Shown in pieces: positions 36,968-41,287 of a DNA stretch of 64,000 nt. Numbering within the stretch: the stretch's first letter is position 1; every line of letters begins with the position of its first letter. A model generated the notes under the pieces. That model had not been told where the DNA came from. It searched no databases and saw only the letters and a program-made list of their open reading frames with translations. Source of the DNA: Escherichia coli (GTDB lineage: Bacteria > Pseudomonadota > Gammaproteobacteria > Enterobacterales > Enterobacteriaceae); NCBI RefSeq assembly GCF_041248615.1, contig NZ_CP158426.1; one strand, 5' to 3'. The translations under genes were made by a program, and so were the position numbers.

Positions 36968-39900
36968 TTACCACTGAATACCGGCACCGAGCGCGGCGGA
37001 GTATTCACCCTGGCTATTGGTACTACCTTGTAATTTGTAGACCCAACGACCATTGGCGCTCACCATCGACACACCTAAAGCAACAGCCGATTCACCATTG
37101 TAAGTACCGCCACCAATAGAGGCCATGCTGGCACCTGGAGTGTAAGCCTGCGGCAGACCGGTCATTGCCATTGCAGAAGCGATACCACCGCTCAACTTGC
37201 TTTCGGTTTTGGACAGTTTGTTATCCATCTCAACCATCCGCTGATCGGTGTATTGCTTCGTTTCCTGCACGCTTTGCTTCAACTGCGCATAGTTCACTGC
37301 GTCGTTGTTGTTGACGCCAGCGGAGACGTTGCTGATGCGAGTCGTACCGCCATTACCACCACCGAGAGTGATGTTGCTGTAGTCTATAGAACCATCAGCT
37401 TTGGTGTCGTAACGAACGCCGCCTGCCTCAGAAGACTTCAGCTGCGAAACGTTAACCGCATCGGTGGCATTAACACCTGCAGCAACGTTGGTGATACGAC
37501 GCTGGTTGGTAGAAGAACCCACAGAGATGGTGTTTTCTTCGTTGGCCACGGAACCGGTACCCAGCGCGACGCTGTTGTCAGCGGCAGCAATGGAACCAGA
37601 ACCAATTGCAACACTGTCTTTACCCTGCGCGTTGGCATCTACGCCATCGGTGTTGGTCTTGAAGTATTTGGTGCTACCGGTGGTTACGATATCGCCAATG
37701 CCGTTTTCGATATTGGTAACGCGAGTATCCAGATTCGTCACCTGATTGTTCAGGTTAGTAATGCTCTGGGTATTCTGGGAAACCTGCGCGTCCGTTACTT
37801 TCAACTGACCCACGTTAACCGCATCGGTATCAGCCGAACCAGCCGCGACGTTGGTGATCTGACGTTGACCGTCTTCACTGCCGACAGAGAACTCACCCAC
37901 AGAGTTCTGTGGTGCGTCCATGTTGTAGGCGGTGTAGCCAGTTTGAGCACCACGAGTCGTCTGTGAGCCATTACCCATAGCAATGCTGTTTGCATGGTTT
38001 GCACGCGCGTTGCTACCGATAGCAATGCCATTAAGTGCATTCGCGTCCACGTAGGCACCATAACCGATACCAATACCCGCATTACCATTAACGATAGTTT
38101 TCGCGCCCATTGCTAGCGAGTCTTCACCTACTGCCAGTGAATCTTCTTCCGTTGAGTTGGCGTGGAAGTATTTGGTCGGCGTGGTAGCGACTGCACCAAT
38201 GGCATTTTGCAACTGGCGAACCGTAACGGCGTCATGGGCTTCGGAACCATCGGCTACGTTGATGATTTGACGATATTTACCGTCATCACCAATAGACAAC
38301 GCACCAAGTAGTTCGCCATCCGTGGTGTCATAACCAATCACAACACCTTCTTCCGACACGCTGGTGTCACGAGAACCTTTAACTATTACACGGCTGGAAA
38401 CGGAACTGCTACCCAGGGCAATACCGGTATCAACGGTGCTGCTGCTACCTTGACCAATGGCTACGCTGCTTTCGCCTGAGGCGACAGCGTTATAACCCAC
38501 AGCCGTAGCGCCAATACCTGAAGCGCTGGCATCGTTGAACGCTAAGCCGTTGTCGTTGGTACGTACATAGTTAATGCCCGCACCGTTATCTTCGATGTAG
38601 GTTTCGCTGGTGTTACCGGCAAGCTGATTGATGATTTCGCTGTTCTGCTGGATCAGCATATTGGTGTTAAACAGCTGAGAACCGTTGATGGCGTCAGTGC
38701 TGCCTTCGCCAATGTTACCATCAGCAACGTTTGTGATGATGCTGGCCTTGCCATCATGGCTGGCGTTGTAGGCACCTGCGCCGTCATTGGCCGTTGCATC
38801 CCACAGCAGAGCGTTATCGTCGAGCGCATCTAGGGCGTCACCGACGTTGTTGTACTCGGCATTTGCAATGGTGTAACTCGGCGCAGTAATAGAACCATCA
38901 GCGTTGACTTCTGCGTCACCACCCAGCGCATCAGCGATGTACTTGTTGGTGGTATACAGTTGTGAGCCGTTAATAGCATCGCTGCTGGTGGAGGAAATTG
39001 CACCGTCTGCGACGTTAGTAATGACGCTGGCCGTTTTATCTACTCCGCGACCGGCGCTAAATGCACCATTACCATCATTGGCTGTGGCATCCCACAGCAG
39101 GGCGTCATCCAGCGTGGTATCGATCGCTTCCAGCGCGTCACCGACGTTGCTGTAACTGCCACCAGCGATGGCATAAGTCGGTGCGGTGATTGTGCCGTCA
39201 GCATTGACTTCTGCGTTACCACCCAGAGTATCGGCAATGTACTTGCTGGTGTCATAGAGCTGTGAGCCGTTAATAGCGTCGCTGCTGGTAGAGGAAATTG
39301 CACCGTCTGCAACATTAGTAATGATGCTGGCCGTGTTATCTGTCCCGCGACCGGCGCTAAACGCACCGTCACCGCCCTTGGCGGTCGCATCCCAGAGTAG
39401 GGCATCACCCAGTGATGTGCTAAATGACGTGTTAATGGCAGCCAGAGCATCACCGACGTTATTGTAGTCAGTACCACCAATAGTGTAGGTTGGCCCGGTT
39501 AATACACCCGCATCGCTGATATCAGCACCACCGCCAAGGTATGACGTAAATGAATCAGCTAAGCCATAAAGTTGTGAGCCATTAATGGCGTCAGTGCTGT
39601 CAGAGGATACAGTGCCTGCCAGTAAGTTGGTGATTTTGCTGGTGGCATCGGTGCCGTGCGCGGCGCTGAACGCGGTGCCATTCCACAGCAGGGCATCGTC
39701 TTTAAGGTCGCCAACGGAATCCGTCAGGGTATTGATACTGTTAGTGTTGGTGGTGATATTGGCAGTATTGGTCGCTACGTTATCGTTGGTGGTTTTCAGC
39801 TGAGAACCGTTAACCGCATCCTTACTGGTATCAGAAATAGCGCCGTCTTTAACGTTGGTGATGGTACTGGTAGTATCTGTACCATGTGCCGCACTATATG

Positions 39901-41287
39901 CCTTTTTAAGGGAGTCCCATTGTAACGTATTATTGTCCAGGCCCGTTAAGGCGTCGCCAACAGTGCCGAAAATACCACTTTTCAGCCTGTAATTTGGGGA
40001 AGTAACGACGCCTTGCGCATTGACGGTAGCCCCCCCACCAAGATTGTCCGCTACTGACTTACTGATAGCATAAAGCTGTGATCCATTGATGGCATCAGTA
40101 CTGGTAGTGCTGATATCACCTGCTGCCATATTGACAATTTGTCGCTGAGCTGTTGTGTTACCCACAGAAACAGTATCCGCGTCAGTCGCTACAGAACCAG
40201 CACCCAGAGCAACTGAATTTTTCCCCTGAGCACTGGCTTGAGCACCAATTGCAGTGCCATTTTCTAAACCGGCATAACTGCCTTGTCCAAGAGCAATAGC
40301 ATTTACACCACCTGTAATACTACCATTACCCAGCGCGATAGCATTTGCGCCGTCAGCTTTATTCCCTTGACCGATGGCAATTGCGCCAGCCGCTACTGCC
40401 TGACTTTGATTGCCCAGAGCAATCGTGTTGTCGACATCTGCAATACTGCCGGAGCCCAACGCGATACTATTAAGTCCATTTGCCTCCGCGTTAGTACCAA
40501 CTGCCGTCGCATTTTCAGCAGCTTTGCTCTCTGCACCCATAGCAATCGCGTTTGCGGCGTTGGCGGCGGATAGTCTACCGAATGCGAGGCTGTCTACGCC
40601 AGCTGCAGCACTGTTGCGGCCTACTGCAATCGCGTTAGCTGCAGATGCGGCGCTACTTGCACCCAGCGCCATTGCATATTCTTTCGACGCATTAGCCGTG
40701 GCTCCGAGGGCGATACTCATAATTCCTAAGGCCTTGCTTTCACGTCCAAATGCGATGGCGTCATCAGCACCAGTCTCTGCGTGATCCCCTTGTGCAATAG
40801 AAAATTCACCTACTGAGTTCGCATAACGACCAAGTGCGATTGAAAATCCACCCGTTGACGTTGCCGATGCACCTATAGCGAGGCTTCGCTCACCTGCTGA
40901 GGTAGTGTTAATCCCTAACGCCACTGATGCTTCGCCAAGCGAATGGGTCTTAGCACCGAGGGCTGTTGACCACCTTCCGTCAGCAGTTGAGTGATAACCT
41001 ACTGCGGTGCTGGAGCCACCCCCGGTGTCTGTAAAACTATTTGCTTTTGCATCTTCACCGATAGCAACCCAGCCTGTTCCTGTTCCCTGGCCATAATTGA
41101 CGCCCTGACCGTTGTCCCTTCCTGCCTGAGCCTGTACCCCAAACGACGACAACATTCCCCCAGCAACCAGGGCAGAAATTAACAGCTTACTGCGCCCGGA
41201 TTTCTTGCCACGGCTTTTTGCCGTTTCACTGGCAACGGTGTAACTGCCTGTTGCCGGATTCCAGATAACTTTAAAAATTTTGTTCAT
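36968..41287 (-). CDS. Trimeric autotransporter adhesin (UpaG/EhaG/SadA family)
   Basis: 1439 aa; extended signal peptide [21 protein letters not shown]...; repetitive head and neck motifs; C-terminal YadA-type anchor ending ...[10 protein letters not shown]. Confidence 0.85.
38680..40096. repeat. Tandem ~300-bp intragenic repeats (about 5 units, two nearly identical) in the adhesin stalk
   Basis: Protein units DALLWDATA...AINGSQLY...NVGDALxAID recur at aa ~398-870; DNA units at 38881-39120 and 39181-39420 align with few mismatches. Confidence 0.7.

Follow-up and report, generated by a model that had tools for sequence, protein, structure and literature searches.

The window, i.e., the whole 64,000-nt stretch of Escherichia coli contig NZ_CP158426.1 (assembly GCF_041248615.1) that was analysed, carries a trimeric autotransporter adhesin gene of the UpaG/EhaG/SadA family, and the repeats in the stalk of this adhesin are the subject here. 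The gene was recognized by RefSeq and Pfam at positions 36968..41287 on the minus strand, as an open reading frame (ORF) of 4320 bp encoding 1439 amino acids (aa). Its stalk is very probably built of two repeat families that are unlike in age and behaviour, i.e., ~100-aa units that are stable and a 78-aa unit that is variable. The gene was a 100% match to the chromosome of E. coli NRZ14408 (NZ_LT599825.1), and its RefSeq name was 'YadA-like family protein' (WP_192459646.1). In RefSeq annotation, the gene order was lldP, the adhesin, a DUF3251/SadB-YajI lipoprotein gene, yibL, yibT, and mtlR-D-A. The lipoprotein gene was located at 41331..42014 on the minus strand by its ORF and by RefSeq annotation in this strain and its relatives. 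It is sadB-like (DUF3251 / SadB-YajI family) and is the operon partner upstream of the adhesin. The sadBA operon has been reported between mtl and lld in Salmonella, Shigella, and Escherichia (PMC3953254). The adhesin gene belongs to this locus by position, as it lies in the lld/mtl interval directly downstream of the sadB-like gene.

The layout of the adhesin comprised an ESPR signal peptide, a YadA-like head, a modular stalk, small second and third heads, and a C-terminal YadA anchor. In Pfam search, ESPR, many PF05658 YadA_head repeats, PF05662 YadA_stalk, and PF03895 YadA_anchor were found, the last one over the final 61 residues (E = 9.8e-20). Ten neck motifs, of which DAVNxxQL is the consensus (PMC7247746), were located by pattern search, and a PF05662 YadA_stalk hit was placed at every one. 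By the anchor, neck, and head features of its sequence, the adhesin is classed as a trimeric autotransporter (type Vc), and a trimer at the cell surface is predicted.

The C-terminal ~1060 aa showed 83% identity to UpaG and 80% to EhaG of O157:H7. The N-terminal head was far more diverged, i.e., 48% identity to UpaG and 43% to EhaG, the latter in a long, gapped second alignment. The NCBIfam scan of the adhesin gave no model above the cut-off. Because the locus is the same, the C-terminal part is similar, the head is diverged, and no NCBIfam model passed, the adhesin was placed in the UpaG/EhaG/SadA group of positional orthologues as one more allele class. The UpaG/EhaG group has been described as positional orthologues with extensive variation in the passenger domain (PMC7247748). 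Naming the adhesin UpaG or EhaG in the strict sense was rejected, since RefSeq uses neither name for it (other alleles are named upaG/ehaG), no curated model passed, and the head is diverged. ORFs in other frames or on the opposite strand that overlap the stalk were also rejected; they had no support and lie inside a conserved coding region. The sadB-like protein had no NCBIfam hit at E <= 1e-5, though RefSeq calls its orthologues DUF3251 or SadB/YajI family. Its accession was not the same in NRZ14408 and strain KE55, though the adhesin alleles of these strains match except for a deletion described below.

Six DAINGSQL necks were found in the stalk at aa 401, 493, 569, 673, 773, and 868, which correspond to window positions 40087 down to 38686. 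Between them lie five units of 92, 76, 104, 100, and 95 aa, spanning 38687-40087. The first-pass annotation, made from the letters alone, had described about five tandem ~100-aa units over 38680-40096. The number of units, bounded by six necks, and the span agreed with this description, but the lengths ran from 76 to 104 aa and the units were not of one repeat type. Two kinds of unit were distinguished, i.e., U1, U3, U4, and U5 with an FGG insertion and U2 without it. All are on the minus strand. U1 (39812..40087; aa 401-492, 92 aa) is composed of a neck, a short coiled coil, an FGG-like insertion, and DALL. U2 (39584..39811; aa 493-568, 76 aa) is composed of a neck, a heptad coiled coil, and DALL with no FGG, and it is the sole hybrid survivor of a 234-bp array. 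The arrangement neck, coiled coil, FGG, and DALL was common to U3 (39272..39583; aa 569-672, 104 aa), U4 (38972..39271; aa 673-772, 100 aa), and U5 (38687..38971; aa 773-867, 95 aa). C-terminal of U5 stands the last of the six necks (aa 868), and then the second head.

The solved-structure sequences that matched the adhesin were the SadA fragments 2ynz, 2yo2, 2yny, and 3zmf, and AtaA 3wpa. SadA 2ynz aligned to the U2-type segment and the last neck, and SadA 2yo2 to the U2/U3 boundary; DALL has been assigned to the former and FGG to the latter (PMC7247746). AtaA 3wpa aligned across U4-U5 and was the best solved-structure match to the FGG units (E = 1e-31, three stretches). Judged by these alignments to solved domains, the stalk units appear to be made of FGG, DALL, and neck elements.

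A 300-bp tandem duplication of two copies, 81% identical and without indels, was detected at 38820..39412 on the minus strand by Tandem Repeats Finder (TRF) and a second repeat search. It was the sole TRF array in the window gene (38820-39412, period 300, 2.0 copies, 81% matches, score 806), and the second search placed the copies at 38820-39112 and 39120-39412. The first-pass annotation had proposed adjacent, nearly identical ~300-bp units at 38812-39406. Such a repeat is present, within ~8 bp of the proposed position. In self-comparison of 38600-40200, offset 300 gave the best diagonal, as expected from the proposal, with 81/90 matches in the best window. At this offset the identity was 0.81, while 1148 other in-frame offsets of the gene averaged 0.298 (standard deviation 0.032). 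The near-identity in DNA was not borne out, since the copies agree at 238/293 positions (81%) and their longest exact run is 20 nt. Over 100 codons, 27 synonymous and 22 non-synonymous differences were counted, i.e., a synonymous divergence (dS) of 0.67 and a non-synonymous divergence (dN) of 0.14. The unit pairs other than this one showed 57-74% DNA identity. With its 20-nt maximum exact run and 19% divergence, the 300-bp pair offers recombination a poor substrate. The worry that the pair could collapse in short-read assemblies loses its ground in the same figures of identity and exact run, and in the occurrence of the exact protein on many contigs of differing length.

The age of the 300-bp units was examined in an all-pairs comparison of the U3, U4, and U5 sequences of the window and five other allele classes. 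The window units were nearest to the unit at the same position, i.e., 83-89% identity in the UpaG (L019), EhaG (L004), NC101 (L009), and L007 alleles, versus only 65-74% to the neighbours within the same allele. Because the identity of orthologues exceeds that of paralogues, the triplication is older than the split of those four allele classes, and the units have not been homogenised since. All alleles examined had three FGG-type modules N-terminal of the second head. With a 1081-bp probe covering U3-U5, 3838 places in 3836 genomes were matched, with a second place in only 2 genomes. Copy numbers were read from 60 matches per search, spread down the ranking. Among these, the 1081-bp span was constant in all alleles of at least 95% identity, so that no recent +/-300-bp change in U3-U5 was seen, and in more distant classes the span differed by 12-24 bp, except in the ST131-type class (L018), which has no U4-type unit. 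The comparison of copy number among orthologues, by which the proposed repeat was to be checked, thus returned a unit-for-unit match of U3-U5 in the UpaG, EhaG, NC101, and L007 alleles. Among the sampled close alleles, the 300-bp unit was not copy-number-variable as an intragenic tandem repeat. The 300-bp units are old paralogues, stable in number on recent time-scales.

In the C-terminal third of U3 (39272-39400), a U4-like patch was found, which is 4 aa longer and occurs in this allele class only; the UpaG, EhaG, and NC101 alleles have DATAGKFSAKHG. An old gene conversion within the gene could account for the patch. The patch explains why the 300-bp pair is picked up by TRF here, whereas in the UpaG and EhaG alleles it goes undetected.

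Variation in copy number was found instead in the 234-bp unit, which encodes 78 aa. The closest full-length alleles, AF39 (L002, 1751 aa) and MDR_56 (L003, 1750 aa), have four extra 78-aa units at the position of window U2. TRF on the closest alleles gave a period of 234 with 3.9-4.2 copies and 96-98% identity. The inner units of KE55 (L017) showed dS of 0.035-0.09, and adjacent units there share exact runs up to 200 nt. With the 234-bp unit as probe, 979 genomes were matched, at 1-8 places each (median 5). Among alleles at least 98.3% identical to the window, the gene spans were 4320, 4557, 5022, 5028, 5256 (most), 5262, and 5721 bp, and the 4320-bp form was found in this record only, among 5426 complete genomes. 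The length differences among close alleles were mostly multiples of 234 bp, apart from 3-6-bp offsets. EBJ003 was identical to STO_Bone2 minus one 234-bp unit, and WCHEC4533 to AR_0067 minus one 234-bp unit; neither pair has a mismatch, and in both the junction is ambiguous over 177 nt. A single-breakpoint model did not fit the seven-unit EFF60 allele (L015), owing to an extra 3-nt offset. The 234-bp unit is therefore a copy-number-variable intragenic tandem repeat, i.e., it changes by whole units, in frame, with junctions within shared identity. The claim that recombination alters stalk length was right in that the stalk modules of this gene expand and contract, but the variable repeat is the adjacent 234-bp unit and not the 300-bp units.

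It is quite improbable that the 300-bp units U3, U4, and U5 are themselves an active recombination substrate which now drives expansion and contraction of the stalk. The pair is truly tandem and free of indels, a local stretch of it reaches 89% identity over 97 nt, the U4-like patch in U3 suggests past gene conversion, and one deep allele class has no U4-type unit. These points are outweighed by the 20-nt longest exact run and the dS of 0.67, by the positional orthology of U3-U5 in four other allele classes, by the constant span in the sampled close alleles with a second place in only 2/3836 genomes, and by the close-allele length differences, which mostly fit multiples of 234 bp. An active role of the 300-bp units is thus largely refuted.

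A finer repetition was observed inside the 234-bp unit. Sub-repeats of 21 nt, one heptad each (e.g., TNTTNIA), lie within the coiled coil of each 234-bp unit, such as L002 4269-4308, 4503-4542, and 4737-4776. Similar 21-nt sub-repeats were seen in L003, L004, L007, and L009, and NC101 has a six-copy run at period 21. These heptad sub-repeats may constitute a second, finer repeat level that could vary by heptads. At another part of the gene, AR_0067 (L016) and STO_Bone2 (L021) differ solely by a 6-nt indel within a 14-nt ambiguous stretch in the head region, at gene nt ~201-215. This indel is a minor event of the slippage type, without connection to the stalk repeats.

The allele in the window is a five-unit allele of KE55 type that lost four units in frame and was left with one hybrid unit. 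The window gene and the KE55 gene showed 0 mismatches over 4320 nt and one gap of 936 bp, i.e., 4 x 234 bp or 312 codons. From this comparison, the deletion junction was located at 39626..39652 on the minus strand, in a 27-nt identity of unit 1 and unit 5 (coding strand ACCGATGCCACCAGCAAAATCACCAAC). No other exact run of this length exists at offset 936, and the breakpoint may lie anywhere within the 27 nt. In U2, the first 186 nt are those of unit 1 in the KE55-type array, and the tail is that of unit 5. In the 300-nt flanks, the window and KE55 showed 1 and 0 differences. The deletion spared the reading frame, the neck motif, and the modules downstream. The inner units of KE55 share only ~80% identity with unit 1, and their tail is a different one. 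They are not derivable by recent duplication of the hybrid unit, and the event was thus a deletion. The junction lies within the interval that the first-pass annotation had covered and was not remarked there. A deletion mediated by an insertion sequence (IS) was considered and rejected; the junction lies in plain 27-nt homology with no IS remnant, though in the closest relatives the array contains ISEc35.

The exact 1439-aa protein was found on at least 19-24 contigs, from <10 kb to >1 Mb, with four third-party (TPA) protein accessions among them. On a second chromosome-sized NCBI contig with the exact protein, a 10.3-kb locus was identical to the window. Such recurrence of the protein, on at least 19 contigs, makes assembly collapse unlikely. 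A collapse of a real five-unit array in NRZ14408 into a single 234-bp unit could be suspected from the single record of the 4320-bp form among 5426 complete genomes, from the difficulty of assembling arrays with 200-nt exact runs from short reads, and from the linear flag on the RefSeq record of this allele. However, collapse of inner units should leave unit 1 and one inner or last unit, i.e., ~4554 bp, and the fusion of unit 1 to the tail of unit 5 that was observed runs through 27 nt, which would be shorter than usual assembly k-mers. Moreover, the contigs with the identical protein include seven index blocks with a longest contig >1 Mb, and the DSMZ group, which is among the authors of the NRZ14408 genome paper, would typically sequence with long reads. 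Such a collapse is therefore very improbable. An ancestral one-unit allele, from which the multi-unit alleles would have expanded, is hardly credible, because, although slippage expansion is mechanistically as plausible as contraction and 6-8-copy alleles exist, the 0 mismatches to KE55 outside the gap indicate a very recent event, the KE55 inner units with their ~80% identity and different tail cannot come from recent duplication of the hybrid unit, and the hybrid unit is exactly the unit-1 body plus the unit-5 tail.

In the reading with two repeat families, the ~100-aa units U3-U5 would derive from an ancient triplication of neck, coiled-coil, FGG, and DALL modules and would now be fixed parts of the fibre. 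The 81% likeness of the 300-bp pair would then combine residual homology with the old gene conversion in a local patch of U3. The 78-aa unit (neck, heptad coiled coil, and DALL), which is placed just N-terminal of U3, forms a young homogenised array in related alleles. This 234-bp array gains and loses whole units in frame, presumably via unequal recombination or replication slippage. In this strain, 936 bp, i.e., 312 aa per chain, were removed, presumably by misalignment over the 27-nt identity of the first and last units. The product is predicted to be a shorter but intact fibre, with 312 residues per chain fewer in a coiled-coil-rich segment.

Where E. coli tandem repeats share 177-200 nt of identity, RecA-dependent unequal exchange and replication slippage are both possible. 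For the 27-nt event, slipped misalignment is the more likely route, because 27 nt is close to the minimum length at which RecA-dependent exchange works efficiently. Some points weigh against the two-family reading. In 60 sampled matches per search, rare 300-bp variants could be missed. The ST131-type class (L018) is without a U4-type unit, which means at least one gain or loss of FGG units in the long term. The contigs with the exact protein may all stem from one clone, or may partly be the same strain.

Interrupted and damaged forms of the gene were observed among relatives. ISEc35 (IS5-like) splits the adhesin gene in L012 (NZ_CP195442.1) at 3219-4136, and likewise in H33 and H34; the three records show 99.4% BLAST identity. 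The insertion site is in or beside the last 234-bp unit, where RefSeq has two partial pseudogenes. In L011 (E2348/69 derivative, NZ_LT903847.1), the orthologue is a pseudogene with a frameshift and an internal stop, and the sadB-like gene is also damaged. The orthologue in L006 (WB61, NZ_CP020025.1) is a pseudogene with an internal part missing. Judging from these gene remains, the adhesin locus would evidently be dispensable in some lineages.

It is textbook knowledge that trimeric autotransporters have modular stalks rich in repeats. The feature described here is ordinary, already known biology of the adhesin family, and the understanding of trimeric autotransporters is unchanged by it. In a literature search on stalk length and copy-number variation in trimeric autotransporters, nothing specific to the sadBA locus was found. 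For annotation and typing, it means that length differences at the adhesin locus come mostly from the 234-bp unit and not from the 300-bp units. Short-read assemblies of multi-unit alleles, with their exact runs up to 200 nt, are at risk of break or collapse, whereas the allele of this strain is not. The deletion scar at 39626-39652 is more informative than the 300-bp repeat that was originally pointed out. UpaG has been considered as a vaccine antigen (PMC7247748). Conservation of such an antigen is affected by the number of surface-exposed stalk modules, i.e., 1-8 among strains, and by the gene being sometimes IS-interrupted or a pseudogene.

The length of the stalk may affect the distance to which the head projects past the cell-surface layers. 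A speculative and rather unlikely idea is that the number of 78-aa modules acts as a fast, selectable 'length dial' tuned to the O-antigen or capsule thickness of each lineage, in which case the one-unit allele of the NRZ14408 clone would be an adaptive minimal state and not a neutral deletion. The idea is based on the recurrent clean in-frame unit changes and the 1-8 range.

Among known systems, UpaG (CFT073-type, 1778 aa) and EhaG (EHEC O157:H7, 1588 aa) occupy the lld/mtl locus with an upstream sadB-like gene, as here. They share the layout of the window adhesin, i.e., ESPR, head, modular stalk, three FGG units, second and third heads, and anchor. The difference lies in the short units, since the window allele has one of 76 aa, whereas UpaG has 78-78-78-71-71 and EhaG has 92-85-78. 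With 1439 aa, the window allele is also shorter than every other full-length version of its allele class seen here. SadA/SadB of Salmonella enterica, a different genus, has the same genomic position and is encoded by an operon with a trimeric lipoprotein (PMC3953254). The DALL, HANS/neck, and FGG elements solved from SadA fragments (2ynz, 2yo2, 2yny, 3zmf) match the window stalk in sequence. AtaA of Acinetobacter sp. Tol 5 (3wpa) shows domain-level likeness to the FGG units only, and it is a much larger protein from an unrelated locus. In BadA of Bartonella henselae, the number of neck/stalk modules varies between strains. The passenger domain of BadA, with its neck/stalk modules, has been described as highly repetitive (PMC9602544). 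BadA has many more and longer modules, whereas the window adhesin belongs to a group in which a variable 78-aa module occurs 1-8 times beside fixed FGG units.

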